A stretch of 64,000 bases of DNA from contig CAYVOL010000001.1 in the NCBI GenBank assembly GCA_964453135.1, forward strand, positions 24,895 to 88,894. The letters are read 5' to 3'. Below are positions 1-53,781 of the stretch, one piece after another. The notes beneath the pieces are model-generated. The model was given only the letters and a program-made list of their open reading frames with translations, was not told the DNA's origin and searched no databases. Positions within the stretch are counted from its first letter, which is position 1, and each line of letters opens with the position of its first letter. The translations under genes and the position numbers were made by a program. Source of the DNA: an uncultured Candidatus Saccharibacteria bacterium (GTDB taxonomy: Bacteria; Patescibacteriota; Minisyncoccia; UBA6257; UBA9933).

Positions 1-207
1 AGGCGGAGAAGAATCTATTGTGTCATTTTGAACCGCCAACTGGCTCCGCCAACTGGCGGAGAAGAATCCCGTATTTATGCAAGTTTGATCATGTGAGATC
101 CTTCGTCCCCCGCCGTGGCGGGGGACGAAGGATGACAATAAAAACAGAATAACAATAAAAAACAACGATGAAAAGTGTAAACAACACTATGAAACCCTAC
201 AAATTAA
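1..207 (-). mobile_element. MITE-like element, copy 1 (minus orientation, truncated by window start): GC-hairpin core modules plus the terminal inverted-repeat motif at 163-207
   Basis: Reverse complement of tgtcatcc..tcccccgccacggcggggga..gaaggatctc at 93-135. ccgccaactggcNccgccaactggcgg module at 1-70. TIR motif caacgatgaaaagtgtaaacaacactatgaaaccctacaaatta at 163-207 matches the copies at 11780-11822 and 35122-35166. Confidence 0.7.
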
Positions 208-242
208 CTAAGTGAAACAAAACAGCCGTAATTTCGTTATCT

Positions 243-806
243 ATGTTGAATGGCGAAGAAAATTTAATAAAACACGCCATTAGAGGTGAGTCCTCGGCTT
301 TTGGCTCGCTTTATGATGAGTACCAACCGCGAATTTACCGGTTTATTTATCTTAAAGTAGGCCATCGTGAGGAAGCCGAGGATCTCACCCACCAAGTTTT
401 CCTCAATGCCTGGAAGAATGTGAAAAATTACCGCTTCCAAGGATTTCCTTTTTCCAGCTGGCTTTATCAAATTGCCCGCAACCAGGTAATAGACCATTAC
501 CGAACGAAAAAAACGGCTTTTACTCTTGACGACAACAGGGATAATGAAGAAGAAAACAGCAATGGCGATAATTTTTTAACAGAAGACAATAATTTTAATT
601 TAGATATCCGCTCGGAAATCGCCGCGGTTCAGGAAGCTATAAAAAAATTAATCCCCGAACAGCAAGACGTCATTATTATGAGATTCGTGGAAGAAATGCC
701 TCATCGGGAAATCGCCGCTTCTTTGAATAAACCGGAAAGCACGGTGCGGGTGCTTCAGCATCGCGCCATTGCTAATTTAAGAAAAACGTTAAAAAACGTT
801 CGTTAA
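243..806 (+). CDS. ECF-type sigma-70 family RNA polymerase sigma factor (regions 2 and 4, acidic linker)
   Basis: Region-2-like YDEYQPRIYRFIYLKVGHREEAEDLTHQVFLNAW and region-4 HTH REIAASLNKPESTVRVLQHRAIANLRK. Confidence 0.8.
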   Translation: MLNGEENLIKHAIRGESSAFGSLYDEYQPRIYRFIYLKVGHREEAEDLTHQVFLNAWKNVKNYRFQGFPFSSWLYQIARNQVIDHYRTKKTAFTLDDNRDNEEENSNGDNFLTEDNNFNLDIRSEIAAVQEAIKKLIPEQQDVIIMRFVEEMPHREIAASLNKPESTVRVLQHRAIANLRKTLKNVR

Positions 807-815
807 AAAATATTT

Positions 816-1373
816 ATGGATAAAATCCGCCAATTATTAAAAGAATTAAAAAAGATTGAGCCGGACAGGGATTACAGCCGGACGTCTAAAATAGCCATTC
901 TCAACTATTCCCGTCCCGAAGAAAAAAGTGGGAGATTTTTGATGGAGATAATCCGTTTCGCAGCGGCGGCGGCTGCCGGCATCTTACTGATAATAACTGC
1001 CCTGGGAGGCGCGTCTTATTTTAATGAAAAATACTCCCCTCTTAATATGGAGGGCCTAAACCAAAAAAATCTGGTCAGCGAAGCCAAAGACATCAATGAT
1101 TCCATAAAAATAACTCTAGAAGAAATAAAATATCTTGACCAGTCCAACAAAAAAGCCATCAACGCGATGAACGAACTGTCCAAAAATAAACCCAACGCCT
1201 CGTCTCTTTCGGCAACCGCTTCCTCTTCTTTGAACGCCACCTCAACCGAGGATTTAAATAATTTTCTTATTAATCCATCTGTCGCCCCATCGGCCGCCAC
1301 TTCCACGGAAATAAACGGAACAAGCACTAATTTTCAAGATGTTAACGCATTGCTGGAAAAAATCTCTCAATAA
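816..1373 (+). CDS. Putative membrane-anchored anti-sigma factor (N-in, single TM, Ser/Thr-rich ectodomain)
   Basis: Immediately downstream of the sigma factor with a 9-nt gap. One TM helix (AAAAAAGILLIITALGGA). No recognisable catalytic motifs. Confidence 0.35.
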   Translation: MDKIRQLLKELKKIEPDRDYSRTSKIAILNYSRPEEKSGRFLMEIIRFAAAAAAGILLIITALGGASYFNEKYSPLNMEGLNQKNLVSEAKDINDSIKITLEEIKYLDQSNKKAINAMNELSKNKPNASSLSATASSSLNATSTEDLNNFLINPSVAPSAATSTEINGTSTNFQDVNALLEKISQ

Positions 1374-1407
1374 GAATGGCGAAGCAAATTATGCGCCTTT
1401 CGTTATT

Positions 1408-2229
1408 TTGGTGGCGAGCGGATTATTTTTTTCAAGCGGCGCTTTTTCGCCGATAAGTCCGCTGATAAATTTCCCGACGGCTTACGCTTCCAGCGCTTCT
1501 TCATCAGCGGCTGAAATTCCGGAAACTTCCGAATTGAGTTTAGGCGACAGAAAACAACTCCTGACGGATATTCTTTCTTCGGCTTTGTCGCAAACCAACG
1601 AACTGGCAAATTATCTTTCCGCTTTGCAGACCCCCAATGAAGAATGGGATAAAATACGGGGCAATTTAGTATCCGACCTTGCCAATTTCAGCGGGCATTA
1701 CCAACTGACAATAGACAAAATCAACGACGCCAGTTCCACCATCACTCTGGAGGAAATTAAAAAAACAGCGCGGGGATTGAAAGACTGGCAGGAAAACATT
1801 TATTCTCCGGAAATAGACAGGGCAATCAACGCTTCCCTTATTTTGAGAGCCGATGATTTTTTCAACACCACGCAAAGCAGATTTGATAAAATATCGGCTG
1901 ATATAAAAAAATTGGAGAGGCAAAGATTTATCAAAACAAATCTTTCCAAGAGATATTTGTCGGATATTTCCCGCCATCTGAAAAACATTGGGAGTTCTAT
2001 TGACAGCGCGAAGAAGTTGTATTTAAAATCTTCCGCGGCCGCGGAAGAAAATTCCGCCACCAGCACCGACGCGCTTTCCAATAAAGCGGAAGAAAAAACC
2101 TCCCTTCAAGAAAGCCGCGCTCAAATCCAGGACACAATAAGAAAAACAATCCAGGACGCGCTGAAAGAATTAAAAACAACTTACGAGATATTCTTCCAGA
2201 TAAACGACAGAATAAAAAACGGGAATTAG
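1408..2229 (+). CDS. Membrane-anchored coiled-coil protein of unknown function (third gene of the sigma locus)
   Basis: The ORF-track start at 1339 overlaps the previous gene. TTG 1408 or GTG 1411 is the more likely start. N-terminal TM FVILVASGLFFSSGAFSPI followed by a long helical region. Confidence 0.4.
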   Translation: MVASGLFFSSGAFSPISPLINFPTAYASSASSSAAEIPETSELSLGDRKQLLTDILSSALSQTNELANYLSALQTPNEEWDKIRGNLVSDLANFSGHYQLTIDKINDASSTITLEEIKKTARGLKDWQENIYSPEIDRAINASLILRADDFFNTTQSRFDKISADIKKLERQRFIKTNLSKRYLSDISRHLKNIGSSIDSAKKLYLKSSAAAEENSATSTDALSNKAEEKTSLQESRAQIQDTIRKTIQDALKELKTTYEIFFQINDRIKNGN

Positions 2230-2248
2230 AAAGTCGGACTATCAATAA

Positions 2249-2280
2249 AACAACCCCCCGCCGCGGCGGGGGGTTGTTTT
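2249..2280. terminator. Bidirectional rho-independent terminator between the sigma locus (+) and hup (-)
   Basis: aacaaccccccgccgcggcggggggttgtttt: perfect GC hairpin with a U-tract on both sides. Confidence 0.6.
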
Positions 2281-2314
2281 ATTCGCTTAAAATATACAGA
2301 GATACTGACGAAGT

Positions 2315-2590: not shown

Positions 2591-2685
2591 AGATATTAAA
2601 ACTTGCTTTTGCTCTGTCGACCTTTGAATGATTAAAATAATTATAGCAAATTTCTCATTGTGAAATCAATTGCCGCTAATAAATG

Positions 2686-2803
2686 AACGCGCTTTTCACC
2701 ATGGTTATTCTGAATTTTATTGTTTGTCATTCTGAGTCCGCCAGTTGGCGGACGAAGGATCTCGCAAGATTCTTCTCCGCCGGCTGGCGGATTCAGAATG
2801 ACA
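2686..2803 (+). mobile_element. MITE-like element, copy 2 (partial left TIR plus core)
   Basis: aacgcgcttttcaccatggttattctgaattttattgtttgtcattctgagtccgccagttggcggacgaaggatctcgcaagattcttctccgccggctggcggattcagaatgaca. Confidence 0.7.
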
Positions 2804-4520: not shown

Positions 4521-4755
4521 TGTCATCCTGAGTCCCCCGCCACGGCGGGGGACGAAGGATCTCGCTAAGATTCTTCACTACGTTCAGAATGACAGCGTAA
4601 GTCATCCTGAGCGAAGGCGAAGGATCTAACGAAATTTTTCTCCGCCAGTTGGCGTCCGCCGGCTGGCGGATCAGAATGACAGCTTTGGATTTCCGCTTTC
4701 GCGGGAATGACAGGCGCTAAGATTCTTCTCCGCCGGCTGGCGGATCAGAATGACA
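4521..4755 (+). repeat. Three tandem MITE core units (each ends in cagaatgaca)
   Basis: Unit boundaries near 4596 and 4682. Hairpins tcccccgccacggcggggga, gcgaaggcgaagg, ccgccagttggcgtccgccggctggcgg. Not CRISPR: the spacers are not unique and the units differ in length. Confidence 0.7.
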
Positions 4756-4896: not shown

Positions 4897-6780
4897 TTAT
4901 TGATAGCAATAATGATAGTAAAGTCGGCTACAGTTGGAATCTACTGGCTCAAAACTGGTTAATTGAACGTCTGTAAAACCAGCTGGACAGGAATACCCTC
5001 CGGTCCAAGGATTGGTTACTGCCGGTTGACACCCGCTACCGGAGATAGTCGTATACATTCCTCCAAATCTACCCGTGCTCGCCCAACGCGCGGGACCACC
5101 AGCTTGCGGAGAACCCAACCACACATCTCCACTCCAAACGGAAATATTTCCACCACTAACCGACAGTTTATTGTCCGGCGCTGTTGTTCCGATGCCGACG
5201 TACCCGTTACTTTGGTTAATATAATCGAGGCTATTTGCGAAATAAAGATCTCCTGTTGAATTGCTAATCATTAACGGTCGCAAGGTATTCCAACTCCCAT
5301 ATTGATTGCCGGAATTGGTAAGTAAAGGCATATATGTATTGACGCCATCATTTCTAATAAAAGCTCCGTAATTTCCAGATATAGCTCTAAATTGACCTGA
5401 GCCACCCCCTAAAGTACTAATGAATTCTGTTGCTGTTCTAGTAGAGCCATTGACATCTAATGTATAGCCTGGTGATGCCGTCCCGATACCCACGTAAGTT
5501 CCATTATCATATATCTGCGAATTGGTAATACTAGGCACAGTTCCCCATTTTGTAAGATAGTTTGTGGTGCCGGAAGTGTAGGTGACCGTACCCGCACCCA
5601 AACTGGTGCAGCTTCCAGCAGAAGTGACAATGCCGCCGGATATTGTAAGACCGCTGGGAGTGGTGCCTGCTGAACAGGTTAATGAATTGACGCCAGCAGT
5701 GCCGCCGCGCCGGTAATAATTGGTTGCGCCGACATTGATGTCTCCGGAAACATCAAGCTTGTAAACAGGAGACATTCCCACGCCGACATTGCCGGAAGAA
5801 TTCCAGACTCCGCTGCCCGGGAAATTAATTGTCCCGCTGAAAGTAGGGCTGGAACTAAAAACCAAAGAACCGCTGCCGGTTTCGTCGGTAATTATTGACG
5901 CTAAGTTGGCGGAAGTATCGGTGTTGAAATAAGTGGAAGACAAGCCGGCGATTTTTCCAGCGGAGGTTATTAAGTTGACATTGCCGGTGCCGAATTGGGC
6001 GGCGCCCTGGACATCAAGAAGCGCGCCGGGAGTGGAAGTTCCGACGCCGAGATATTTGTTGGTATTGTTCCAGAAAAGATTGGCGTCTCCGCCTAAAGTG
6101 CCGGCATTGTTGAATTGCACCTGGCCGGTGGAGCCGCCGGCGAATCCTGTGGGCCAGGAAGCAATGCAGGAACCGTTAAGGCAGAACTGGGTGGAGCTGG
6201 TGTTACCCGAAACTTCCAAGGGCTGGCTGGGATTAGAGGTGCCTACTCCGAAATTACCGGAGTTGTAATAAAGTTTAGAGCCGGAGGAAAAAAGGCAGGC
6301 GCTGTTGACGCATAGCCCGGTGTCGGAACGGACATAGCCGCCCAAGACGTCAAGCTTGACCCCTGGGCTGGCGGTGCCAACGCCGACATTGCCGCTCATA
6401 AGAGCAGTGGGGTTACCTTGTTTACCAATTTGTAATACTACGTTATTTCCACTATCAAAAAATTGATATTGAGTTGCATAACCGCCAGTACCGCCGGGAT
6501 TAAAACCCATCCAAGAATTAACTGAATCACCCGAAATATAAGAGGAATTCCCTAACCCAAATTTTAACGCTGATGTAACTCTCGCATTGCCATTAACATC
6601 TAATATATATTGCGGCGTCGTTGTCCCAATGCCCACATTGCCGCCGGAATAATATAAGACACCCCCCCCTGCGCCGGGAGCAGAGGAAGGAGAAGTCCAG
6701 CCGAAAACTACGGTGGCAAAAGAAACTGCTAAAATGAGGCAAGAGAATATGAAAAGGATTTTAGGAAGGGAGCGGGACAT
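4897..6780 (-). CDS. Secreted Gly-rich beta-helical repeat protein (tail-fibre-like repeats), Cys-rich C-terminus
   Basis: Signal/TM at the N-terminus. About 10 degenerate repeats of the form GNVGIGTTxPxxxLDVxG. C-terminal CxxGxxxC..C..YCY. Confidence 0.6.
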   Translation of the reverse strand: MSRSLPKILFIFSCLILAVSFATVVFGWTSPSSAPGAGGGVLYYSGGNVGIGTTTPQYILDVNGNARVTSALKFGLGNSSYISGDSVNSWMGFNPGGTGGYATQYQFFDSGNNVVLQIGKQGNPTALMSGNVGVGTASPGVKLDVLGGYVRSDTGLCVNSACLFSSGSKLYYNSGNFGVGTSNPSQPLEVSGNTSSTQFCLNGSCIASWPTGFAGGSTGQVQFNNAGTLGGDANLFWNNTNKYLGVGTSTPGALLDVQGAAQFGTGNVNLITSAGKIAGLSSTYFNTDTSANLASIITDETGSGSLVFSSSPTFSGTINFPGSGVWNSSGNVGVGMSPVYKLDVSGDINVGATNYYRRGGTAGVNSLTCSAGTTPSGLTISGGIVTSAGSCTSLGAGTVTYTSGTTNYLTKWGTVPSITNSQIYDNGTYVGIGTASPGYTLDVNGSTRTATEFISTLGGGSGQFRAISGNYGAFIRNDGVNTYMPLLTNSGNQYGSWNTLRPLMISNSTGDLYFANSLDYINQSNGYVGIGTTAPDNKLSVSGGNISVWSGDVWLGSPQAGGPARWASTGRFGGMYTTISGSGCQPAVTNPWTGGYSCPAGFTDVQLTSFEPVDSNCSRLYYHYCYQ

Positions 6781-6821
6781 TTTTTATTTATCGTTGTTTT
6801 TATTGTTATCCTGTTTTAATA

Positions 6822-6968
6822 GTCATCCTGAAAGTGTTTTTGTCATCCTGAGTCCCCCGCCACGGCGGGGGACGAAGGATCTCGCAAGATTCTTCACTGC
6901 GTTCAGAATGACGGGGTGGATTCTTCTCCGCCAGCTGGCGTCCGCCAGCTGGCGGATTCATAATGACA
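6822..6968 (+). mobile_element. MITE-like element, copy 4 (core, partial duplicated 5-prime end)
   Basis: gtcatcctgaaagtg partial, then tgtcatcctgagtcccccgccacggcgggggacgaaggatctcgcaagattcttcactgcgttcagaatgac...ccgccagctggcgtccgccagctggcggattcataatgaca. Confidence 0.7.
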
Positions 6969-7169: not shown

Positions 7170-8252
7170 TTAGTTTGCCACCAACGGGGCTGGACCCATC
7201 GGCGGCGAGAATAAAGGTCCGTTTGGAGGCAAAGGAGCCGGTCCGCCTCCTGGAAGTCCAGGGGAACCCGGAGGACCAATGGGACCTTGAGCGCCAACGG
7301 GGCCTTGTGAACCGACTGGGCCTTGCGGGCCTGCCGGACCTTGAGCGCCAGTTGCGCCCCCTGGCCCCTGAGGACCTGTCGAGCCCTGGGCTCCTTGAGA
7401 TCCTTGCGGACCTCTAAATCCTCGCGGACCCTGAACGCCTTGCTGGCCTTGGGGACCTTGCGGACCTACTGGGCCGCGAGGGTGATGAATGATATGGATG
7501 GAGGATGCTGCCGCTCCTCCGTAAATCGCGGCCTTATCAATGTCGCTCGCCGCCAAAAATGGGACGCCGCACTCCTCCGGAAGGAAGGCTTTTTCAAAAA
7601 TTCCTCCCAGAAGAGAACCACCGACCGCGGCTAACGCACCGATTGGATGGCTCATCGCCATGGCTCCGCCAAATCCGGCAAGCCCTCCCAAAGTGCCGCC
7701 CCATCCAGAGGGAGTACATCTTTTTTGCCAGGCATCTCTTCGCTCCAGGGCGTAATTCACCGCTGCCACCACATCTGCCTGAGTAATCTGCGGCTGTGGC
7801 GGAGGATACTGGTAAATAGCTTGAGGCGGTGGCGACGCTGGCATCGGCTGATACGACGCCGCTGCCGGCTGTTGAACAACTGCTTCTTGCGGCCGCGGAC
7901 GCGTTGCTGAAACCGCCCTGTCCTCAATGAAATTCAAAAACACTCGATTGAGAATAGGGTTGCCGCAGGCACATACTTTGTCCGCCAGCCAACGCTCTCC
8001 GTCTTTACGCATAGAGACTTCTGTTCCGACTGGCAACCAGCCAGTGGAAATTTTTCCGCTGGCGCCAATTATTTTCACCTCGGCATCCTCGTCCAACTTC
8101 ATGGTCGGGAGGTTTTCTTTCTTACAAAGGTCCGGCGCCACCGGGTCGGCGCCGATGTTAATATATTTTTTCCCGGTTTCCGCGGCAACGGGCGAAATCC
8201 CCGTCGCGGCTAATGCAACTATGGCAAGAGCAATGACACCCATTCTTCTCAT
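7170..8252 (-). CDS. Secreted collagen-like triple-helix repeat protein (GC-rich, SD-preceded)
   Basis: Signal peptide [25 protein letters not shown]-terminal run of G-X-Y triplets ([22 protein letters not shown]...). Strong SD aaggaggagggg upstream. Local GC is well above the neighbouring genes. Confidence 0.65.
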
Positions 8253-11455: not shown

Positions 11456-11605
11456 CTTTTAATAAACTAGAATGCCAAAACTCAACCCAAATTATCATTT
11501 TGCATTTTGAGGCCTGAAATTTCAATTTATATTATTATATATAAGATTTCATGGCCTTGTTTATGCTTTGCATCGTTGTTTTTTATTATTATTCTGCTTT
11601 ATTGC

Positions 11606-11822
11606 TATCCTGAACGTCTTTGTCATCTTGAGTTTTTTGTTTGTCATCCTGAGTCCCGCTTAGCGGGACGAAGGATCTCGTAAGATTCTTCTCCGCCAGT
11701 TGGCGGAGCCGGTTGGCGAATCAGAATGACAGAGGGTCGGAACTCATAATGACAGGGGGCTATCGGGAACAAAAATAGTCAATGTTTTGAACGTAAACAA
11801 CGCTATGAAATCTTACATATTA
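11606..11822 (+). mobile_element. MITE-like element, copy 5 (near full length: core plus right TIR)
   Basis: Core tgtcatcctgagtcccgcttagcgggacgaaggatctcgtaagattcttctccgccagttggcggagccggttggcgaatcagaatgaca. Right TIR caatgttttgaacgtaaacaacgctatgaaatcttacatatta at 11780-11822. Confidence 0.75.
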
Positions 11823-11826
11823 TATC

Positions 11827-35118: not shown

Positions 35119-35121
35119 AAG

Positions 35122-35320: not shown

Positions 35321-35343
35321 AGGGGGGGGGGATAAAACGAGAT

Positions 35344-41902: not shown

Positions 41903-41907
41903 AAACT

Positions 41908-47063: not shown

Positions 47064-49493
47064 ATGAATCTAATTATCGTTGAGTCTCCGGCAAAAACAA
47101 AAACCATAGCAAAGTACCTCAAGGGCGATTACGTTGTGAAAGCCAGCGTGGGCCATATTCGCGACTTGCCGAAAAACAACAAGAAAGCCATTGACATTGC
47201 GGGCGGTTTCACGCCGCATTATGAAATCATCCCAGGAAAAGAAAAAGTCATCGCCGAACTGAAAGAAACAGCCGGAAAAACAAAAGAAATTTTATTGGCC
47301 ACTGACCCGGACAGAGAAGGAGAAGCCATTGCCTGGCACATCATTGAGGCATTAAGCCTCGGAAATTCAAGATTCAAGATTAAAAATTCAAAACTGCCGA
47401 GCATTAAGCGGATTGTTTTTAATGAAATCACGGAATCCGCTGTCAAAGAAGCGTTAAAACATCCGCGAGACATTGATGTGAACTTGGTAAAAGCGCAGGA
47501 AGCGCGCCGCGTTCTTGACCGATTAGTGGGATACGATTTAAGCGGATTGATCTGGAAAAAAGTGCGCTACGGATTGTCGGCCGGCCGGGTGCAATCTCCG
47601 GCTTTGCGCATTTTAATGGAGAAAGAACGAGAAATTCGCGCTTTTAAGCCGGAAAATTACTGGGTGATAACCGGCGAGTTTGAAACCAAAAATAACGATA
47701 AAATAATTCTTATTTGCGAAGAAGAGCCGCGGGATAAAAAAGAGATGGAAAGAATAGTGGAAACGGCGAAGAAAAATAAGTGGCAAATAATCAATGCGAC
47801 GCAAACGGAGGCAAAACGTTCTCCCCGTCCTCCATTTATCACTTCCACGCTCCAGCAGGCGGCCAGCTCCCGCTTGGGAATGGCGCCCAGCCGCACAATG
47901 TCTTTGGCTCAAAAACTTTACGAGCAGGGATTCATCACTTATATGAGAACCGACAGCGTCAATATCAGCAAGGAAATTCTGCCGCAGATTTACGGAGTAA
48001 TAGAAAAACGCTTCGGCAAGAAATATCTCGCTCCGCGCGCTTACGCGGCGAAAAGCAAGACCGCCCAGGAAGCGCACGAGGCAATCAGGCCCAGCCGCCC
48101 GGATTTTATTCCGCAAAATTTAGGCGGCCAAGCAAAAATAACCGACAAACAGCAATCATCTCTTTATCAATTAATCTGGGAAAGAACTGTTGCTTCGCAA
48201 ATGGCTGACGCGAAAATTTCACGGACAAAAATCTCCGCCAATATTTATGATCAGCATGATATCTCTGGTTATCATGATATTTCTGATCACCATGATGTTT
48301 CTAATCACCATGATATTTCTGGTCATCATAATGTTTCGGATCATCCTAATATTTCTGGTCATCCTGAGCGAAGCGAAGGATCTCAAAAAGATTCTTCGAC
48401 TGCTTCGCTCCATCAGAATGACAATAATAAAATCCCCAACTTTTCCACCACTGGCAGCATAGTCATTTTTGACGGCTGGCTGGCCGCCGACCCTCTCAGC
48501 CGCGGAGAAAATGTTGAACTGCCCGCGTTAAAAATTGGGGAACCGTTAAAACTTCTTAACATCAGCGATGAAGAAAAAACCACTGAGCCGCCTCCCCGCT
48601 ACACCGAAGCCGGACTGATTAAAGAATTGGAAAAGCGGGAAATCGGCCGTCCCAGCACATACGCGACTATCATAAAAACCTTATATGACCGCGGGTACAC
48701 AATTAAGGAAGGCAAGGCGCTGAAGCCGACGGACACCGGCGAAGTAGTCAGTAATTTTTTGGAAAAAAATTTTTCCGCTTATATCAGCGATTCCTTCACC
48801 GCGGAAATGGAAAATGAATTAGACGAAATCGCCGGCGGCAAAAGGCGCTACGAAAAAATGTTGGGCGATTTTTATAAGCCGTTCTCGCAGGCGGTGAAAG
48901 ACAAAGAAAAAACCGCGGAAAAATTAACCAACCTCGGCGAAGCGGACAAAGAACACAAATGTCCGGTTTGCGAAGGGCCGATGGTGATAAAATTATCGCG
49001 CAGCGGAAAATTTTTAAGCTGCGCTAAATTCCCCGAATGCCAGGGAGCACGAAAAATCGACGGCGCCGCAATGGAAGGCCCGAAAGAAACCGGCGAAAAA
49101 TGTCCGCAATGTAAAGAGGGAGATTTAATTGAGCGGGAAGGCCGCTTTGGCAAATTCATCGCCTGCTCCAACTATCCCAAATGTAAATTTATAAAAACCA
49201 GCGCGGAAGAAGAGGCGAAGAAAAAAACCGGTGTCGCCTGCCCGGAGTGCCAAAAAGGATTGTCCGCCGAAGCCTCGGCAAAGACAGGCGAGATTATGGA
49301 GCGCCGCGGACGCTTCGGCTTGTTTTATTCCTGCTCCAATTATCCCAAATGCAAATTTATTATGAAATCGCGGCCAACAGGAAACATTTGTAAATTATGC
49401 AAAGCGCTGATGATGGAGGGAACTAAAACAATTCCCGAACGCTGCAGTGATAAAAATTGCCCCAATTACAATCCGTCAAAACAAAAGAATTAA
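47064..49493 (+). CDS. topA: DNA topoisomerase I with C-terminal zinc ribbons and an in-frame repeat insertion
   Basis: Toprim start MNLIIVESPAKTKTIAKYL...HIRDLP. Several C4 zinc-ribbon repeats (CPVCEG...C..C; CPQCKEG; CPECQKG). Confidence 0.9.
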   Translation: MNLIIVESPAKTKTIAKYLKGDYVVKASVGHIRDLPKNNKKAIDIAGGFTPHYEIIPGKEKVIAELKETAGKTKEILLATDPDREGEAIAWHIIEALSLGNSRFKIKNSKLPSIKRIVFNEITESAVKEALKHPRDIDVNLVKAQEARRVLDRLVGYDLSGLIWKKVRYGLSAGRVQSPALRILMEKEREIRAFKPENYWVITGEFETKNNDKIILICEEEPRDKKEMERIVETAKKNKWQIINATQTEAKRSPRPPFITSTLQQAASSRLGMAPSRTMSLAQKLYEQGFITYMRTDSVNISKEILPQIYGVIEKRFGKKYLAPRAYAAKSKTAQEAHEAIRPSRPDFIPQNLGGQAKITDKQQSSLYQLIWERTVASQMADAKISRTKISANIYDQHDISGYHDISDHHDVSNHHDISGHHNVSDHPNISGHPERSEGSQKDSSTASLHQNDNNKIPNFSTTGSIVIFDGWLAADPLSRGENVELPALKIGEPLKLLNISDEEKTTEPPPRYTEAGLIKELEKREIGRPSTYATIIKTLYDRGYTIKEGKALKPTDTGEVVSNFLEKNFSAYISDSFTAEMENELDEIAGGKRRYEKMLGDFYKPFSQAVKDKEKTAEKLTNLGEADKEHKCPVCEGPMVIKLSRSGKFLSCAKFPECQGARKIDGAAMEGPKETGEKCPQCKEGDLIEREGRFGKFIACSNYPKCKFIKTSAEEEAKKKTGVACPECQKGLSAEASAKTGEIMERRGRFGLFYSCSNYPKCKFIMKSRPTGNICKLCKALMMEGTKTIPERCSDKNCPNYNPSKQKN
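48247..48423 (+). repeat. In-frame insertion in topA: 18-bp tandem repeats encoding x-H-H-D-I-S hexapeptides, followed by a 66-bp MITE core (gtcatcctgagcgaagcgaaggatctc...cagaatgaca)
   Basis: Six 18-nt units (ggttatcatgatatttct / gatcaccatgatgtttct / ...). The last unit merges into ggtcatcctgag, the MITE 5-prime end. The MITE core at 48358-48423 is 66 bp (22 codons). Confidence 0.8.
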
Positions 49494-49502: not shown

Positions 49503-49564
49503 TGTCGTTCCCCGCCCCGCCGTGGCGGCGGGGCGGGGCGAGGAATCTCGCGGGATTGCTTTTC
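49503..49564 (+). repeat. MITE-family left half (module 1) at the left border of the ORFan island
   Basis: tgtcgttccccgccccgccgtggcggcggggcggggcgaggaatctcgcgggattgcttttcc, compared with tgtcatcctgag-hairpin-gaaggatctcgcaagattcttc. Confidence 0.55.
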
Positions 49565-49578
49565 CAATAAAACAAAGT

Positions 49579-49607
49579 TTGACTAAAATAGCATTTGCTG
49601 GTATTAT
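49579..49607 (+). promoter_or_regulatory. Consensus sigma70-type promoter (TTGACT, 17 nt, TATTAT) for the island operon
   Basis: ttgactaaaatagcatttgctggtattat. The 5-prime UTR ends in SD aaaggagg before ATG 49688. Confidence 0.55.
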
Positions 49608-49687
49608 ATAAAAAGTAAATAAACAGATTTTTATTGAGGCGTAAACACGCGGCACAATGATAGCGACTTCACAAAAGGAGGAACGAA

Positions 49688-50146
49688 ATGCTGGTGATCT
49701 CGGCTTTAAACACCATAAGACTGCTAATGGAAGAGGTGAAGGAAACCGAAATCCTGATAGAGCCGGAGGAAGAGGTGCGGAAAGGCGAGAGAGTCATAGG
49801 AGAGATGGCGGGAGAACTGAGAAAAATATACACCCTAGCGCAAGTTTACAGGCAAGCGGCAGTGAACTTGTCCCATTCTGTTTTAAATGGCGGCGCGACG
49901 GGCAAAGAATCAGAGAAGGGCAGGACGGCCTTCATAAAGATGAAGCGGTGCGAATATACCCATACCTATCTCATGGATACCCTGTGGCATTCTCTGTTCT
50001 TGTACTACGATGAAAAACTTTCCCATCTTTGCGCCGACACGGTTGCCGTAAGAGCCGGCTGGAAAATCGTCGTGTTCAATACTGACGACGCTGTTAAAGA
50101 ATGCGGCGAATGCCAATGCGGAACCGCAATGATTAATCCGAACTGA
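49688..50146 (+). CDS. Island ORFan 1, Cys-rich C-terminus (CGECQC)
   Basis: SD aaaggagg 8 nt before the ATG. 152 aa, no TM, GC-richer codons. Confidence 0.5.
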   Translation: MLVISALNTIRLLMEEVKETEILIEPEEEVRKGERVIGEMAGELRKIYTLAQVYRQAAVNLSHSVLNGGATGKESEKGRTAFIKMKRCEYTHTYLMDTLWHSLFLYYDEKLSHLCADTVAVRAGWKIVVFNTDDAVKECGECQCGTAMINPN

Positions 50147-50162
50147 AAAGAAAGGAGGCGCG

Positions 50163-50435
50163 ATGAACGTTTTGCTGGAATGTTTTAACGCCGCGTACAT
50201 TGAGGCACGGCGGCAATTTCAGAAGCAGTATCCGAAATACAACGCGGGCGCCGTGCTTTCTGCGTTTCAGAGATGCCCTCGCGCCCGCGGCGACCCCCGC
50301 GACATATCGGGAGCATACAAGCACGTTTTCGGCGGCGCGGAAACCGACGAAAAAGCACAGTGTTCCCAGTGCGATGGGTTTTTGTGGCGATACGAACGGG
50401 CTATCAGAAATTATTCCCGCGTTATGCGGGATTAA
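50163..50435 (+). CDS. Island ORFan 2 (90 aa, CSQC motif)
   Basis: SD gaaaggagg. Follows ORFan 1 after 16 nt. Confidence 0.45.
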   Translation: MNVLLECFNAAYIEARRQFQKQYPKYNAGAVLSAFQRCPRARGDPRDISGAYKHVFGGAETDEKAQCSQCDGFLWRYERAIRNYSRVMRD

Positions 50436-50462
50436 AAAGAAAGGAGACGCCTTATGTATTTA

Positions 50463-50498
50463 GGGCTGTCCCGCTGTTGAGCGGGACAGCCCTTTTTT
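50463..50498 (+). terminator. Rho-independent terminator
   Basis: gggctgtcccgctgttgagcgggacagcccttttttatt. Confidence 0.7.
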
Positions 50499-50650
50499 AT
50501 TGGCTTTCCGAACAACGCAATTTCTATTTGACAAAATTAAATAAAGTTGTATAATTATGAAATAAAAAGTGGCTCTTTCCCAATAAAATAACGGGATAAC
50601 GGGGTTTTTACCCCTAACGCGGCACTGCCGCAAAGAGAGGAGAAAGCGCG

Positions 50651-51034
50651 ATGAAGAGAATTTCTGTAATCGTCCTGTGTTTGGTTGTTGCTGGTTTCGC
50701 GTTAGTTGGTTGTTCACAACCGACACCCCAAGAGCGAAAGCAATACTATAACACCTTAACCCAACTCAAGAATGTCACGCGAGGAGATCTGATTGTCAAC
50801 AAAGATGGTTGGGTAGTAATCGTTTGCCTATCCCCCGTAAAAACAGCTGGTGGGATAGGAGAAGATATAAGCCTCCTTGTTAACGAGTGGGGGCTGTGGC
50901 AAACAAACATTCAAACTCTGTCGTATGAGCAGTATGTGCGCAGAGTTATTCTTAAAGGCGATCCGGATTATACAGATGCCCTAAGGCATTTTGCGATAAG
51001 GGATAAATACTATAAAGAGGCACCAATCAAATAA
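50651..51034 (+). CDS. Island lipoprotein (127 aa)
   Basis: Lipobox ALVGC after an h-region. SD agaggag. Confidence 0.5.
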   Translation: MKRISVIVLCLVVAGFALVGCSQPTPQERKQYYNTLTQLKNVTRGDLIVNKDGWVVIVCLSPVKTAGGIGEDISLLVNEWGLWQTNIQTLSYEQYVRRVILKGDPDYTDALRHFAIRDKYYKEAPIK

Positions 51035-51064
51035 ATATCGCGCACCTAAAGGAGGTGATATACG

Positions 51065-51256
51065 GTGCCATACTACTCAACGAAGAAGAAACACCACCGC
51101 AGCCATATCAGCGGCCAGCGGTGGGTGAAATCGGAGAATATGCAGGCCTACATTGAAAGCCTGCACCGCAAAGAGAAACAACTGATAAAGAAAATGGCGA
51201 AAATTCATTCCCGCTTCCGGTCTGAATATCAGAAGGAAGCGGCTCAAAGGAGGTGA
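51065..51256 (+). CDS. Island small basic protein (63 aa, GTG start)
   Basis: SD aaaggaggtgatatac before the GTG. Lys/Arg/His-rich. Confidence 0.35.
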   Translation: MPYYSTKKKHHRSHISGQRWVKSENMQAYIESLHRKEKQLIKKMAKIHSRFRSEYQKEAAQRR

Positions 51257-51261
51257 TATAC

Positions 51262-51753
51262 ATGAAGGCGAAGTTTGTTTTTTTCGCGGCCTTCGCGGCA
51301 ATAGCGGTGTTATGGCTCATCGTGGGTTGCGCTCCGGGGACGCAGTTAGCGTTTAACCCGGAGATTCAAATGAACGGGTTCGGCGGGGCGTATGGAACAT
51401 CATACAGCCCCACCCTCCGCTATGGTTACTACTATCCCTTCGCGGAGATAGTGGTAACCAACAACACACCTTATTATCTTCAGCCTGAGCAGGACGGCCG
51501 GCTAAAGGTTTTAAGGGATGCCCAGGGGCAGGTTTACACCACTATTGCCCCAGGGCAGTCTTTGAGATACCACATCGCCGTGCCGTACTATACTTCGGTG
51601 CCCACGGCGGTCGTGGCCAAGGCGTTTACGCCAGACGGGAGATTTATTGGCGTTGCCGATAGAAAGTTTTACTTCTACGGCAACATCAATCAACGTCTTT
51701 TGGAGTCGTGGGTGGTCAACACCTACGATGTCCGGGAGGCGCGCTCCCGTTAG
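51262..51753 (+). CDS. Island lipoprotein (about 164 aa, Tyr/Gly-rich)
   Basis: The identical SD context aaaggaggtgatatac is duplicated from the previous gene. Lipobox LIVGC. Confidence 0.5.
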   Translation: MKAKFVFFAAFAAIAVLWLIVGCAPGTQLAFNPEIQMNGFGGAYGTSYSPTLRYGYYYPFAEIVVTNNTPYYLQPEQDGRLKVLRDAQGQVYTTIAPGQSLRYHIAVPYYTSVPTAVVAKAFTPDGRFIGVADRKFYFYGNINQRLLESWVVNTYDVREARSR

Positions 51754-51773
51754 GATAAGACAAAAACATTTTT

Positions 51774-51812
51774 CCCCCGCAACAGGAATTCCTGTTGCGG
51801 GGCGTTTTATTT
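51774..51812 (+). terminator. Rho-independent terminator
   Basis: cccccgcaacaggaattcctgttgcggggcgttttatttt. Confidence 0.7.
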
Positions 51813-51821
51813 TAGGGGTTT

Positions 51822-51869
51822 GGATTGCTTCGCCCGCCCCGCCATGGCGGGGCGGGACTCGCAATGACA
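51822..51869 (+). repeat. MITE-family right half (module 2-like) at the right border of the island
   Basis: ggattgcttcgcccgccccgccatggcggggcgggactcgcaatgaca, compared with gattcttc...hairpin...attcagaatgaca. Confidence 0.5.
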
Positions 51870-51913
51870 AAAATATCAATTATGACTTCTCTAAAAAATG
51901 CTATAATAAATTA

Positions 51914-52525: not shown

Positions 52526-52526
52526 A

Positions 52527-52603
52527 GCGCGCGTAGCTCAGCCGGTTAGAGCGTCTCGTTTACACCGAGAAGGTCCCCTGTTCGAGCCAGGGCGCGCGCA
52601 CCA
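52527..52603 (+). tRNA. tRNA-Val (anticodon UAC), CCA encoded; starts 2 nt after the DedA stop
   Basis: Manual fold: acceptor GCGCGCG/CGCGCGC, D-arm GCTCAGCCGGTTAGAGC, anticodon loop UUUACAC, T-arm CCCTGTTCGAGCCAGGG, ACCA. Confidence 0.85.
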
Positions 52604-52792
52604 ATTCAAAATTTGATTTTTCCAAAAAACTTGCTACAATATGATTGAGTCGTGGCAGTGATTCTCGGGTCAATGGATTAAAAAGGGAGGGAGTATTTAG
52701 TCTTCGGATTGAAAATCCCACCCACCTGGTTTACAGCCGGGATAATCCCACGCCACGGCTCTTTTAGCGCCAATTTAAATTGAAATAATTTT

Positions 52793-52993
52793 ATGCGCCA
52801 ATGTGAAATCTGCGGGAAAGGGTCTATTATGATGGCGGGCAGAAAAAAACTGCGCGGCAAATATAATCCCACTCCCGCGACAAGAAAATATCCCAATTTG
52901 CAAAAAGCTCTTCTCGCTGACGGAAGGCGCGTTTTGGCTTGCACAAAATGCATCAGGACCGACGCCAAAACAAAAAACAAGACAAAAAAGTAG
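52793..52993 (+). CDS. rpmB: 50S ribosomal protein L28
   Basis: CEICGKG zinc knuckle, RKYPNLQ motif, second CxxC. Confidence 0.6.
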   Translation: MRQCEICGKGSIMMAGRKKLRGKYNPTPATRKYPNLQKALLADGRRVLACTKCIRTDAKTKNKTKK

Positions 52994-52994
52994 C

Positions 52995-53036
52995 ATACCA
53001 AAACTCCCCCCGCCATGGCGGGGGGAGTTTTGGTAT
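52995..53036. terminator. Bidirectional hairpin terminator
   Basis: ataccaaaactccccccgccatggcggggggagttttggtat. Confidence 0.7.
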
Positions 53037-53067
53037 TAAGCGGCATTGGTAAAAATTATCTTCTCTA

Positions 53068-53601
53068 TTATCTTCTCGTATTGTTCACCAAATGAAATGC
53101 CACGATGCCGAAAGCCACGGCGACATTCAACGATTCTTTCCCTTGGCCGGCGCAGCGAGGATGGCCGGCTTGCCTGATTATTTTTCCACGCATGGGGATT
53201 TCTAAAATTTTATCCGCCTGTTTTAGAATTGGCGGCGGCAAGCCTTTGGTTTCGCTTCCCAATATCAATGCCGAATTTTCAACCTGCAAAGCAGATAGGC
53301 GAACCTTGTGATAAGGGACGGATTTTTGCCCTTGTTCAATGGCAAAAATTTTATATTTTTTATCCGTCGGCGATTTTTTTAATTTATCAATAAATTTCAC
53401 GGCGGAGCGATAATATTCCCACTGGATATATTTCTCCGCGCCCAATGAAACTTTAGCGAACTGCGGGCGTGGACGACCGAACTCGTCAATAGGTTTGGGA
53501 GTGATACCGCAGAGATAAATTTTTTCTATGCCGAGAGCGTCGGCGGTGCGGAAAATAGAGCCGACATTATGGAGGCTGCGGATATTGTGCAAAATAATTT
53601 T
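53068..53601 (-). CDS. SpoU/TrmH-family RNA 2-prime-O-methyltransferase
   Basis: LHNVGSIFRTADALG and ILGSETKGL plus C-terminal LNVAVAFGI knot motifs. Start taken at Met MKIILHN. Confidence 0.75.
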   Translation of the reverse strand, partial: KIILHNIRSLHNVGSIFRTADALGIEKIYLCGITPKPIDEFGRPRPQFAKVSLGAEKYIQWEYYRSAVKFIDKLKKSPTDKKYKIFAIEQGQKSVPYHKVRLSALQVENSALILGSETKGLPPPILKQADKILEIPMRGKIIRQAGHPRCAGQGKESLNVAVAFGIVAFHLVNNTRR

Positions 53602-53673
53602 CATATTTTCCAGTATCAAACCAAACATTCAATGCGTCAAGAACAAATCTTCGGCTTTGGCGCTGTTTGGAAA

Positions 53674-53781
53674 GTCATTCTGAGTCCCCTTGCCCCGCCA
53701 AGGCGGGGGGCGAAGAATCCCGTATTGACCGCGGAAACTTTCAAGATGCTTCGTTCCGCCACGGCGGGGCTCAGCATGACT
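53674..53781 (+). mobile_element. MITE-like element, copy 9 (core)
   Basis: gtcattctgagtccccttgccccgccaaggcggggggcgaagaatcccg...gatgcttcgttccgccacggcggggctcagcatgac. Confidence 0.65.

Follow-up and report, generated by a model that had tools for sequence, protein, structure and literature searches.

CGTC/TGTC-tagged hairpin repeats, probably of the REP type, in a 64-kb stretch of a Patescibacteria genome

Results

Repeat loci in the window

The window, by which we mean the whole 64,000-nt stretch of DNA analyzed, comes from a small-genome Patescibacteria bacterium.

Direct sequence reading found the repeat at all ten loci listed in the first-pass annotation (10/10), and a covariance model together with reading by eye gave approximately 25 half units in total. 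The half unit, a hairpin of 25–50 nt, is the building block of the family. Two half units are usually arranged tail to tail with their tags outward, giving a heterodimer of 65–110 nt that reads TGTCATCCTGAG-hp-CGAAGGATC-TCGYAAG-GATTCTTC-hp-TCAGAATGACA; half units were also found singly and in tandem. The strict search pattern GTCATYCTGAGN{4,34}CGAAGRATC gave 8 matches, versus 0.00 expected from 100 shuffles. Searching the window with a covariance model built on the 25-nt core detected 12 half units at E ≤ 0.003 and 3 further half units at E of approximately 1 that were judged true from their context, and half units with long or duplicated inner hairpins were supplied by eye. A repeat finder yielded the same families (D1, D5, D9, D17, D20, and I2–I15). 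These results confirm a dense repeat family with conserved ends (TGTCATYCTGA and its counterpart, the terminal element of the heterodimer) that are inverted repeats of each other.

The first locus (1–207) is cut by the window edge. The 3′ arm and tail of a half unit (AGGCGGAGAAGAATC; 1–15, + strand), the head of which lies left of the edge, are complementary to 6918–6932 (I13). Dimer U1 follows on the − strand (21–137; I2, I4, I5; DNA fold z −6.5), with an L half (95–137, −), an R half carrying a 13-nt duplicated inner hairpin (21–68; TRF), and a spacer of 28 nt. Reading of the adjoining A/T-rich linker (138–162, −) revealed a degenerate head, GTTATTCTG, at 144–153. Dimer U2 (2725–2803, +; strict pattern, covariance model, DNA fold z −11.0) lies between the RNase Y gene, 41 nt beyond its stop codon, and an HU-like gene, and is preceded at 2686–2724 (+) by a remnant (CGCTTTTCAC...) of the inner part of the module described below and by a degenerate head (2704–2713). 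The third locus consists of dimer U3 (4521–4594, +; strict pattern, covariance model, DNA fold), with TCCCCCGCCACGGCGGGGGA as the left inner hairpin and a right mini-hairpin of the ACGTAGT type; dimer U4 (4600–4681, +; strict pattern, TRF, covariance model), with a mini left half and a right half containing a 14-nt duplicated hairpin; a canonical CGTC-1-type half unit, GTCATTCCCGCGAAAGCGGAAATC (4688–4712, −; covariance model), with 1 mismatch to GTCATTCCCGCGAAAGCGGGAATC; and an R-type half unit (4719–4755, −; covariance model). Directly upstream of the ATG of the tail-fibre-like gene (6780), a T-rich linker with two head-only repeats (6805–6813 and 6822–6831; period 17) occupies 6790–6840 (+). 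It is followed by dimer U6 (6841–6913, +; D5, strict pattern, covariance model), of which the first 45 nt match U3 exactly, and by an additional half unit of the R type containing a 14-nt duplicated hairpin (6917–6968, −; TRF).

In the dnaK-X-dnaJ operon, two head-only repeats, GCTATCCTGA and GTCATCTTGA (11604–11641, +), dimer U7 (11642–11731, +; strict pattern, covariance model, DNA fold), and a further head-only repeat (TGTCATTATGAG...; 11732–11754, −) lie between two module copies. Dimer U8, with a long spacer (35176–35275, +; covariance model, DNA fold), is followed by an extra half unit (GTCATTCTTTG-TCCCCCGCC...; 35279–35322, −; I6, I7), and the hemerythrin stop codon is 22 nt beyond it. 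Two loci share the same rare inner hairpin: one located 10 nt past the end of topA (49503–49564, +), with a variant left half (GTCGTTCC...GGAATC), a spacer, and 9 nt from the start of a right half (GGATTGCTT), and a variant right half (GTCATTGC...GCAATCC; 51822–51869, −; D4). They look like variant halves of one dimer split by 2.26 kb. Dimer U12 (53673–53781, +; strict pattern, covariance model, DNA fold) has the compensated stems ATTCT/AGAAT and ATGCT/AGCAT.

The copies had been described as lying between genes, which does not hold for the copy at 48358–48423, located in frame within the topoisomerase I ORF (47064–49493). In this essential gene, topA, one dimer and an 18-nt tandem array form an in-frame insertion of approximately 57 amino acids. 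The array (48241–48356, +; D6, TRF; 7.1 copies including the U9 head) has a unit composed of a flank and a decaying head and yields HD(I/V)S(G/D/N)H repeats on translation, and dimer U9 (48357–48423, +; strict pattern, covariance model) encodes GHPERSEGSQKDSSTASLHQNDN. The insertion was found in none of 39 TopA homologs. The X-dnaJ spacer is 371 nt in the window and 4 nt in one relative, and no repeat units were detected in the 38 kb scanned of two relatives. Apart from these "empty sites", neither excision nor insertion polymorphism was observed, and the relatives that carry them are distant (70, 49, and 31% identity for TopA, DnaJ, and X, respectively); therefore, the repeats may have been lost in the relatives.

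Structure of the half unit

The half unit consists, in order, of a (T)GTC tag, an AT-NNN stem, a tandem G·A (G·A/A·G), an inner hairpin, N′N′N′-AT, and a C(YN) tail. Its inner hairpin takes one of two forms, a GCGNAGC mini-hairpin with a GNA loop (GAA, GCA, GGA, or GTA) or a GC-rich hairpin exchangeable among units, in agreement with the modular core with variable GC hairpins proposed earlier. The sequence tccgccagctggcgKccgccagctggcgg, described as a second module, is present, but TRF identified it as a 13–14-nt tandem duplication of the inner hairpin rather than a distinct module. Spacers were 0–70 nt in 72 of 82 adjacent +/− pairs.

The NNN/N′N′N′ triplets were fully paired in 439 of 470 half units from loci ascertained using the commonest sequence variants (shuffles: mean 291, maximum 313), with at least 8 Watson-Crick types present. 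Among 59 distinct 25-mers, 95.2% of cells were paired versus 85% in shuffles, a level that 0 of 500 shuffles reached; slid controls gave 20–52%, and 5 of the 7 stem pairs varied on both sides. The GTCAT, GA, GA, and ATC anchors were preset by the search patterns, and their invariance in alignment A2 is therefore by construction. Inside the window, compensated stems occur in U12 and the half unit at 51822. Every unit folded as DNA far below its shuffles (z −3 to −11). These results indicate that the hairpin is conserved as a structure. The compensatory changes are strand-symmetric, with wobble counts too few to decide between DNA and RNA. GCGNAGC forms a DNA mini-hairpin that is much less stable as RNA: d(GCGAAGC) melts at 76.5°C and the related 8-mer RNA form r(GCGAAAGC) at approximately 39°C (PMC13037366). 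This indirectly favors selection on the DNA rather than the RNA hairpin.

Distribution in other bacteria and phages

The exact 25-mer occurs in more than 120 genome stretches from more than a dozen phyla, versus approximately 0.001 expected by chance, as we calculate from the reported size of the collection. The whole heterodimer including the 7-nt spacer was found in 10 metagenome contigs with GC contents of 34–63%, and the half-unit pattern also in phage contigs, which encode terminase, portal, and capsid proteins. Other phyla likewise have head-plus-flank arrays. The distribution is patchy, with highly uneven copy numbers, and the repeats were absent from 5,426 E. coli genomes and 50,697 cultured-phage records.

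The 45–65-nt module

The long terminal inverted repeat (TIR) of approximately 45 nt assigned to the family is a separate, lineage-specific repeat of 45–65 nt that adjoins the hairpin units. It is present at exactly four places (0.01 expected). Copy 1 (163–209, −; I1, I3) has its outer end 34 nt upstream of the sigma-factor ATG (243); copy 2 occupies 11533–11603 (+) together with a T-rich linker; copy 3 (11780–11824, −; I10, I12) has the opposite orientation to copy 2 (I12) and comes to within 3 nt of the stop codon of ORF-X; and the outer end of copy 4 (35119–35175, +) abuts the ATG of the ODP gene (35118, − strand). The module flanks a repeat copy on both sides only at 11533–11824, and no copy was found in the 240 related loci, the metagenome scan, or the two relatives checked. 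Copy 2 contains an outward promoter-like match, TAAACA-18-TATAAT (11563→11534), toward dnaJ (ATG at 11455), and promoter consensus matches occur in 2 of the 4 copies; the module might conceivably serve as an outward promoter or operator for the downstream gene.

Discussion

Origin of the repeats

The first-pass annotation took the repeats for MITEs. True MITEs would be deletion derivatives of a DDE-transposase IS that move by cut-and-paste via TIRs (11 nt, or 45 nt in the long copies) and generate target-site duplications. The inverted ends do have the TG...CA termini typical of DDE elements, the composite at 11533–11824 has inverted arms of 31–45 nt (I12), and U3 and U6 are nearly identical (D5). 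However, no target-site duplication (k = 2–8, any boundary offset) was found in 78 dimers or at the window copies; the elements have a sharp edge at T/C-GTCAT, position −1 holding T in 62/78 and C in 11/78. No parent IS or transposase was found in the window, including by Pfam search, no transposase lay between widely spaced ends, and none was a recurrent neighbor at the 240 related loci (2 Mb). The long arms are missing from every other genome examined, and half units that occur alone or in tandem are each self-contained, covarying hairpins. The 11-nt TIRs are apparent, because such half units pair in inverted orientation with tags outward. A MITE origin is thus highly improbable. The annotation had also proposed terminator or attenuator mimics. 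Cis-acting RNA structures under selection for gene regulation (terminators, attenuators, or stabilizers of mRNA 3′ ends) would account for the very stable hairpins and for the position of most copies, 3–140 nt past stop codons or in the 5′ leaders of co-directional genes, and in E. coli, REPs are known to shield the 3′ ends of mRNAs (PMC3733652). Nevertheless, we consider this explanation unlikely: the copies lack a T-run, and none passed a hairpin-plus-T-run terminator scan that the neighboring true terminators pass; relative to L→R, 8 loci would be transcribed antisense and 3 sense; and the TopA copy is translated. Furthermore, no Rfam family matches the repeats, these genes carry no units in the relatives, the stability of the GCGNAGC core is specific to DNA, and identical sequence is found beside unrelated genes in many phyla.

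Alternatively, the repeats could be immobile DNA sites kept as useful to the cell or its phages, e.g., single-stranded hairpin signals for primase or single-strand initiation, or gyrase or nucleoid-protein sites like E. coli BIMEs. GCGAAAGC/GCGNAGC mini-hairpins mark the priming origins of ssDNA phages and ssiA of RSF1010 (PMC13037366), the sequence is conserved across phyla, and the L→R orientation is the same in 9 of 10 loci, on the negative-GC-skew strand, although only a few, clustered loci were counted. There is little likelihood of such a function given the patchy occurrence, with the repeats missing in close relatives, E. coli, and cultured phages, and the very uneven copy numbers. The copies within coding sequence and the decaying partial arrays also argue against it and fit selfish or neutral DNA.

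We conclude that the repeats are probably CGTC/TGTC-tagged REP-type elements and not MITEs. As to their spread, we infer non-coding, non-autonomous selfish or neutral DNA, of which the selected form would most likely be a single-stranded DNA hairpin. This hairpin would be recognized in trans by a putative structure-specific enzyme encoded away from the repeats, our best guess being an HUH/Y1 (IS200/RAYT-like) nuclease, and inserted without target duplication; no mobilizing enzyme was identified in the window or among the neighbors of the related loci. Local growth would proceed by slippage-type tandem duplication, either of a head with its flank or of an inner hairpin, and the TRF tandem arrays in the window and the head-plus-flank arrays of other phyla fit this step. 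In this genome, the repeats would have invaded intergenic spacers of housekeeping and stress genes, split the dnaK-X-dnaJ operon, and extended a variable loop of TopA by about 57 residues. Effects of transcribed hairpins, as RNA structures in UTRs, are possible and would be side effects.

Comparison with known families

The closest known family is the CGTC/TGTC-tagged REP superfamily (CGTC-1 to -4; Di Nocera, De Gregorio & Rocco 2013, BMC Genomics 14:522, PMC3733652), which includes dRS3 of Neisseria and RPE-4/RPE-6 of Rickettsia. The unit at 4688–4711 has 1 mismatch to CGTC-1, the sequence of which was deduced from published peptides in three reading frames. CGTC REPs resemble the window units in the CGTC or TGTC tag that stays unpaired at one end, in a stem opening A-T, T-A, and in a short, C-rich tail; both form tag-outward dimers with structured spacers, occur in several phyla without an adjoining transposase, and include in-frame intragenic copies, the published ones adding 8–30 residues. 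Only one window unit agrees with the strict published definition. The main type has a 5-bp outer stem with two G·A mismatches, whereas the CGTC families have a perfect 8–9-bp stem; its inner part is a mini-hairpin of 2 bp with a 3-nt loop or a nested 8–11-bp GC hairpin instead of a 4–5-nt loop; and its tails are CTC/CTT instead of CCA. The peptide signatures VILSEAKDL and HPERSEGS are absent from the table of intragenic copies in the CGTC paper (PMC3733652), and the 25-mer is spread far more widely than the five phyla reported for CGTC REPs.

RPE-4/RPE-6 and dRS3/NIME are likewise short palindromic repeats of small genomes that insert in frame into essential proteins without disrupting them (here TopA) and form mosaics with other repeats (here module-REP composites), but their stem sequences differ and they come from unrelated organisms. 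Nf phages are known to integrate at dRS3. Bacterial MITEs (Correia, Nezha, and RU/ERIC-type) are also small and intergenic, with inverted ends, hairpin potential, and occasional in-frame intragenic copies; the window repeats differ in having no target-site duplications, no related IS, and hairpin halves that occur independently. REPINs/BIMEs share a pair of REP hairpins in inverted orientation that are separated by a short spacer and form one long hairpin (PMC3116915), non-autonomous occurrence in tens to hundreds of copies without target duplication, and a presumed single-stranded DNA intermediate. In contrast, REPINs have a GTAG tag and occur together with a single-copy RAYT bordered by these REPs (Bertels & Rainey 2011, PMC3116915), and no such RAYT gene was seen in the 64 kb searched; REPINs are lineage-specific and vertically inherited, whereas the 25-mer of the window is identical across phyla.

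Count and Anatomy of the Repeat

The words named in the first-pass annotation were present, on reading of the sequence, at all ten loci that it listed, and its description of the repeat family was largely accurate. The pattern GTCATYCTGAGN{4,34}CGAAGRATC gave 8 matches in the window versus 0.00 in 100 dinucleotide-preserving shuffles, and a repeat finder gave the same families as the pattern search. A covariance model of the 25-nt core detected 12 units at E≤0.003 and a further 3, judged genuine from their context, at E~1; to this count we added by eye the units whose inner hairpins are long or duplicated. In total, the ten loci contain approximately 25 half units (hairpin repeats with a (T)GTC tag), which occupy approximately 1.3 kb of the 64 kb, and eight dimers were counted. 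The element of 70–110 nt described earlier is made of two such half units and is not itself the basic unit.

The half unit starts with the (T)GTC tag and the 5-bp stem strand AT-NNN; a GA dinucleotide stands on either side of the inner hairpin, and the returning strand N′N′N′-AT and a tail that starts with C complete the unit. As its inner hairpin, a unit has the 7-nt GCGNAGC, for example in GTCATCCTGAGCGAAGCGAAGGATC at 48358–48382, or one of several GC-rich types (TCCCCCGCCACGGCGGGGGA, TCCGCCAGYTGGCGGA, TCCCGCTTAGCGGGA, CCCGCCCCGCC...). The dimer is formed by half units joined tail to tail, as TGTCATCCTGAG-hp-CGAAGGATC-TCGYAAG-GATTCTTC-hp-TCAGAATGACA (hp, inner hairpin). The inverted-repeat ends noticed before, TGTCATYCTGA and TCAGAATGACA, were found at the ends of every dimer; because the dimer is two half units placed tail to tail, these 11-nt "terminal inverted repeats" are simply the heads of two inverted half units. 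In regards to "module 2", which had been taken as the second part of a bipartite core, TRF identified it as a 13–14-nt tandem duplication of the inner hairpin, with duplicated inner hairpins at 33–57, 4641–4668, and 6927–6954.

The stem triplets were almost always CCT/AGG in the left (L) half and TCT/AGA in the right (R) half. Each half is therefore perfectly self-complementary, and cross-pairing between L and R involves a C·A or G·T mismatch. A cloverleaf (four-way junction) fold of the dimer was rejected, since the two halves are each internally compensated and CCT/AGG, TCT/AGA, and, in the dimer U12 (53673–53781), ATTCT/AGAAT and ATGCT/AGCAT would mismatch in cross-pairing. A hammerhead-like reading of CUGAG...CGAA was also rejected by eye, as the core did not fit. 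The CCT-type half preceded the TCT-type half on the + strand in 9 of the 10 loci, whatever the strand of the neighbouring genes, and the GC skew was negative over most of the window. The L-to-R orientation may be biased relative to replication, judging from a small sample of clustered loci.

A stem core, CCCCCGCC-NNGG-GGCGGGGG (repeat-finder family D4), is common to A/T-flanked bidirectional terminators (2252–2275, 53004–53027, and 60553–60576) and to many inner hairpins of half units (104–127, 4531–4554, 6851–6874, and 35288–35311). The inner hairpins may derive from terminators; alternatively, terminators and half units may each contain the same small GC palindrome.

Conservation of the Hairpin as a Structure

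The related loci collected by pattern scans comprised 240 loci with a total length of approximately 2 Mb. Using a pattern that left the triplets unconstrained, the triplets were fully complementary in 439 of 470 half units, versus a shuffle mean of 291 and a maximum of 313, and at least 8 different Watson-Crick triplet combinations were observed. Standard pairs occupied 95.2% of the pair cells among 59 distinct 25-mers, versus 85.0% after shuffling; none of 500 shuffles reached 95.2%. In this material, the search pattern itself dictated the GTCAT, GA, GA, and ATC anchors, and the commonest variants had been used to find the loci. Five of the seven stem pairs changed on both sides in these 25-mers, and pairing fell to 20–52% when the partner was slid by 1–3 columns. 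The loop was G-N-A, with all four N seen. All window units folded as single-stranded DNA far below the shuffled controls (z −3.1 to −11.0). These results show that the half unit is a covarying hairpin. Ten metagenome contigs (L246–L255) shared the same 22-nt junction, GAAGGATCTCGYAAGATTCTTC, and carried differing inner hairpins, which indicates that the dimer framework is conserved and that the hairpin tips are free to vary.

The Long Module and the dnaK-X-dnaJ Spacer

The longest copies had been described as carrying a terminal inverted repeat of approximately 45 nt as part of the element. This module brackets a dimer on both sides only at 11533–11824 (repeat-finder family I12), and we regarded it as a repeat in its own right, specific to the lineage and accompanying the REP clusters. 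The module spans 45–65 nt (TAATTTGTAAGATTTCATAGCGTTGTTTACGCTTTTCATCGTTGTTTTTTATTGTTATTCTG) and has four copies in the window versus 0.01 expected; a remnant lies at 2686–2724, and the T-rich inner part recurs at 6790–6812. Its pattern was not found in the 240 loci, the metagenome collection, or two relatives. In the alignment (A1), the inner end always faces a GTCAT head. The outer end points toward gene starts, as had been observed for the sigma factor at 243 and the ODP-like gene at 35118; it also points toward the dnaJ start at 11455 and, in the fourth copy, toward the stop codon of ORF-X, the gene between dnaK and dnaJ.

Outward sigma-70-like matches were present in two module copies (TAAACA-18-TATAAT and TAAACA-18-TATTAT), and a sigma-70 promoter was rejected as the general identity of the module, only 2 of the 4 copies matching. 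A small palindrome lies between two TTTCAT words, spaced 21 nt apart, at 163–209, 11547–11566, and 35135–35154; it is AGCG...CGCT in two copies and AGTG...CACT in the third, a compensated change. Short ORFs reading outward begin in three copies (MKSVNNAMKSYKLT..., MKSVNNTMKPYKLTK, and MQSINKAMKSYI); no ribosome-binding site was found for the MKSVNNAMKSYKLT-like upstream ORF, for which the copies are too few. From its sequence in these few copies, the module resembles a binding site for a protein or a very short leader, and we hypothesize that it may serve as a portable promoter or operator. The composite of module and REP has a published parallel in REP dimers that lie within longer palindromes.

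The relative GCA_964642155.1, whose TopA is 70% identical, has a grpE-dnaK-X-dnaJ operon with 4 nt between the X stop and the dnaJ start, and its X and DnaJ align to their ends with the window proteins. The X-dnaJ spacer of the window is 371 nt long and is filled by the composite at 11533–11824. Neither half units nor the module were found in 38 kb of partly syntenic DNA from this relative and a second one. An insertion at X-dnaJ in the window lineage would explain the difference; these relatives are distant, and a loss in them may explain it instead.

Insertion into TopA and Other Features of the Window

The copies had been said to lie between genes. The dimer U9 (48357–48423) lies in frame inside the topA coding sequence. 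TopA of the window has 809 aa versus 720–772 aa in the listed homologs, the best named of which are from Wolfebacteria, Paceibacterota, and Parcubacteria; the organism is accordingly a Parcubacteria-type member of the Patescibacteria. Residues ~393–453 were absent from all 39 closest homologs listed and sit in the short, variable loop that separates ...ISANI from IPNFS.... The extra DNA, which is translated as HDISGY HDISDH ... GHPERSEGSQKDSSTASLHQNDN, consists of seven 18-nt repeats and then U9; each repeat joins flank to a GTCATCCTG head that is progressively decayed. The 18-nt period keeps the reading frame, and intergenic head-only repeats have 16–22 nt.

Through the repeats, the transcripts of rny, topA, the hemerythrin gene, and ORF-X would carry hairpins in their 3′ UTRs, and those of the tail-fibre-like, dnaJ, ODP-like, SpoU, and sigma-factor genes in their 5′ leaders; the repeats would also interrupt the chaperone operon and lengthen the TopA loop. 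An identical sigma-factor gene was found on two Logan contigs of 1.9–2.2 kb (L241 and L242, from SRR5161805 and SRR5161795, respectively), which end 121–146 nt upstream of the gene, inside the first half unit. This identity indicates that the same organism is present in both data sets. In practical terms, the repeats break short-read assemblies, seed spurious ORFs (…HPERSEGS… and …LRSAQNDK…), and alter real proteins such as TopA.

In the variant left half at 49503–49564, the last element is a 9-nt right-half start (GGATTGCTT, 49552–49560), and the right half at 51822–51869 begins with the same GGATTGCTT (51822–51830); both halves carry the rare inner hairpin CCCGCCCCGCC.... By sequence, the two look like the parts of a single dimer, with a 2.26-kb segment (49561–51821) between them and the 9-nt direct repeat flanking it. 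The segment contains promoter-like sites at 49579–49607 and 50528–50555 (the latter a perfect TTGACA-16-TATAAT), two terminators, and small ORFs without Pfam matches, two of which have lipoprotein-like signal peptides; no transposase was found in it. It may have inserted into a REP dimer, or it may be a cassette flanked by REPs.

Two further genes lie between housekeeping genes (rny and PCMT), both flanked by repeat clusters: one for a 627-aa protein with a phage long-tail-fibre Gp34 trimerisation domain (4897–6780, − strand) and one for a 360-aa collagen-repeat protein (7170–8252, − strand). Two adjacent SLT-domain (lytic transglycosylase) genes at 26685–28160 share 73–82% identical DNA over ~530 nt at an offset of 940 nt and are a tandem gene duplication. 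A perfect 7-nt tandem repeat, GATCCAA × 4.7, lies at 40139–40171 inside a trmD-like gene (39913–40599), with a period that is not a multiple of three.

Distribution across Phyla, Phages, and Metagenomes

The exact 25-mer GTCATCCTGAGCGAAGCGAAGGATC occurred in at least 120 stretches of the species-representative genome collection, whereas by our own arithmetic chance would give approximately 0.001 in 596 Gb. Among the matches listed, the record titles named Acidobacteriota, Chloroflexota, Bacteroidales, Mucilaginibacter, Hymenobacter, Chlorobiales, Lachnospiraceae, Clostridia, Verrucomicrobiota, Nitrospirota, Gemmatimonadota, Planctomycetes, Bdellovibrionales, Omnitrophica, Patescibacteria, and Alpha-, Beta-, and Gammaproteobacteria. 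The identical core is shared with Bacteroidota, Bacillota, Planctomycetota, Proteobacteria, and Bdellovibrionota, and also with phage contigs. Cultured hosts that carry the repeats include Mucilaginibacter sp. SG564 and Hymenobacter piscis. The half-unit pattern matched IMG/VR contigs, and terminases, portals, and capsids are encoded among those listed. The complete heterodimer, with its 7-nt spacer and CCT/TCT asymmetry, was found in the ten metagenome contigs L246–L255, whose GC contents range from 34 to 63%. No match was found in 5,426 E. coli genomes or in 50,697 cultured-phage records, and the plasmid collection gave only three weak matches. The distribution of the repeat is patchy. The identity of the 25-nt core across phyla implies that the repeat spread horizontally very recently or that its recognition target is under strong constraint, and the core provides a sharp sequence handle for phylogenetic profiling toward the missing enzyme.

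Mobile-Element and Terminator Readings

The repeats had been labelled as MITEs and as likely terminator or attenuator mimics. Neither target-site duplications nor a transposase, as expected of MITEs, were found in the dimers and loci searched, and half units also occur singly and in tandem. Target-site duplications of k=2–8, examined at nine boundary offsets in 78 dimers, were as frequent as in shuffles, and none was seen by eye at the window copies. Pfam searches of approximately 60 ORFs in the window, which covers 64 kb of the 181-kb contig, revealed no transposase, including no match to Y1_Tnp, and housekeeping or stress genes throughout. All-versus-all clustering of 4,092 ORFs from the 240 loci gave no recurrent transposase neighbour; the clusters consisted solely of phage structural proteins and common enzymes. 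In loci L040, L120, L136, and L204, where inverted ends are widely spaced, the ORFs between them were unrelated and showed nothing consistent, the repeat-rich phage contig L050 encodes a terminase, portal, and capsid and no transposase, and no autonomous IS with matching ends was found in the 64 kb plus 2 Mb of loci. As to terminator mimicry, none of the 71 terminator-like window sites (hairpin plus T-run) was a repeat copy, whereas true terminators beside copies do score (51775–51802, 53036–52995, and 54238–54204). Rfam gathering thresholds were passed in the window only by three tRNAs, and the best sub-threshold match on the repeat copies at E≤5 was sucA (E=0.25). The repeats are REP-type hairpins, and neither label holds, that of MITE being taken in its defining sense; the relabelling changes which enzyme and signatures to look for.

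With regard to how the hairpins spread, the selected form would be the single-stranded DNA hairpin, in which tandem G·A pairs beside the mini-hairpin are a second DNA-friendly motif. GCGNAGC and GCGAAAGC are "extraordinarily stable" DNA mini-hairpins; the melting temperature is 76.5°C for d(GCGAAGC) and approximately 39°C for the RNA of a related 8-mer, r(GCGAAAGC), and these mini-hairpins occur at priming origins of ssDNA phages (PMC13037366). IS200/IS605 and REP/RAYT elements spread via a folded single strand without duplications (PMC3116915, PMC6006769). By analogy, a similar spread via a folded single strand would be our tentative best guess for the mechanism. In REPINs, two inverted REPs form one hairpin, as in the window dimers; their tag, however, is GTAG and is cut by RAYT, whereas the window tag is TGTC/CGTC. 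Because no cis-encoded or lineage-specific transposase was found, we also propose, as an unlikely and speculative reading, that the TGTC heterodimer might be one nucleotide-conserved mobile hairpin spread over >12 phyla and tailed phages and propagated by a near-universal single-stranded-DNA process. This process would be replication priming, repair, or template switching, and would recognise the GCGNAGC mini-hairpin and its G·A-flanked base; tandem head-only arrays (period 16–24 nt; 18 nt in TopA) would be its footprints.

In the window and in other phyla, what is duplicated is always the head with 8–13 nt of its flank, and it directly precedes a complete half unit on the 5′ side. An upstream head was present in 68 of 424 units, with a peak distance of 19–24 nt. 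Window arrays are located at 6805–6840, 11604–11641, and 48241–48356. In unrelated phyla, arrays of GTCATCCTGA(G) plus 8–13 nt often precede complete half units with a period of mostly 19–24 nt (L131, L137, L085, L136, L139, L152, and L173), and in some the extra bases resemble the start of an inner hairpin, like truncated half units. Hairpin slippage or nested insertion could both make such arrays, and we favour slippage at the stable hairpin as the cause of local growth.

Relation to CGTC/TGTC REPs

Di Nocera et al. (2013) defined two REP superfamilies (PMC3733652). The CGTC family, which includes Neisseria dRS3 and Rickettsia RPE-4/-6, has an unpaired CGTC tag, "changed to TGTC ... in many repeats", a 3-nt tail, and in-frame intragenic copies, and forms mostly inverted dimers with spacers of 1–100 nt that are often self-complementary; it occurs in five phyla, and its members "apparently lack a dedicated transposase" (PMC3733652). 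The tag, A-T stem start, tag-outward dimers, and lack of an adjoining transposase are all found in our repeat. The base before GTCAT in 78 dimers was T in 62 and C in 11, and positions further out were random; the tag is thus TGTC or CGTC, and conservation stops exactly there, which gives the element sharp ends. Window heads are mostly TGTC, with some GGTC, AGTC, and CGTC. The stem starts with complementary A and T (GTC-AT...AT-C) in all window half units, on which this test rests, the A2 columns being fixed by the pattern. Spacers were 0–70 nt in 72 of 82 adjacent +/− pairs, and some are self-complementary (e.g., TGCAC...GTGCA).

The stem of the CGTC family is a perfect 8–9 bp with a loop of 4–5 nt, unlike that of the main window type, which has 5 bp, G·A/A·G, and 2 bp with a 3-nt GNA loop, or a nested GC hairpin. 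Only the unit at 4688–4711 fits the published stem (8 bp with 1 mismatch and a GAAA loop). The peptides VIPAKAGI, SFPRKRES, and DSRFRGND in the published table of intragenic copies (PMC3733652) are three frames of one sequence, GTCATTCCCGCGAAAGCGGGAATC, which occurs with a single mismatch at the same 4688–4711, within the cluster at 4521–4755. The peptide signatures of the main window type are absent from that table, and a full-text literature search for its DNA and peptide words gave no relevant paper. C follows the stem in nearly all units, with TC, TT, CC, or CG as the next bases; the main window type has CTC/CTT tails, whereas the consensus tail of the CGTC family is CCA. Because the stem, loop, tail, and peptides differ and no paper was found, we placed the main type outside CGTC-1 to -4 as a variant of the CGTC/TGTC REP kind. 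It is a CGTC/TGTC-type REP new to the Patescibacteria, and it widens the puzzle of the CGTC REPs by a sister type that is dense in a reduced genome of this phylum.
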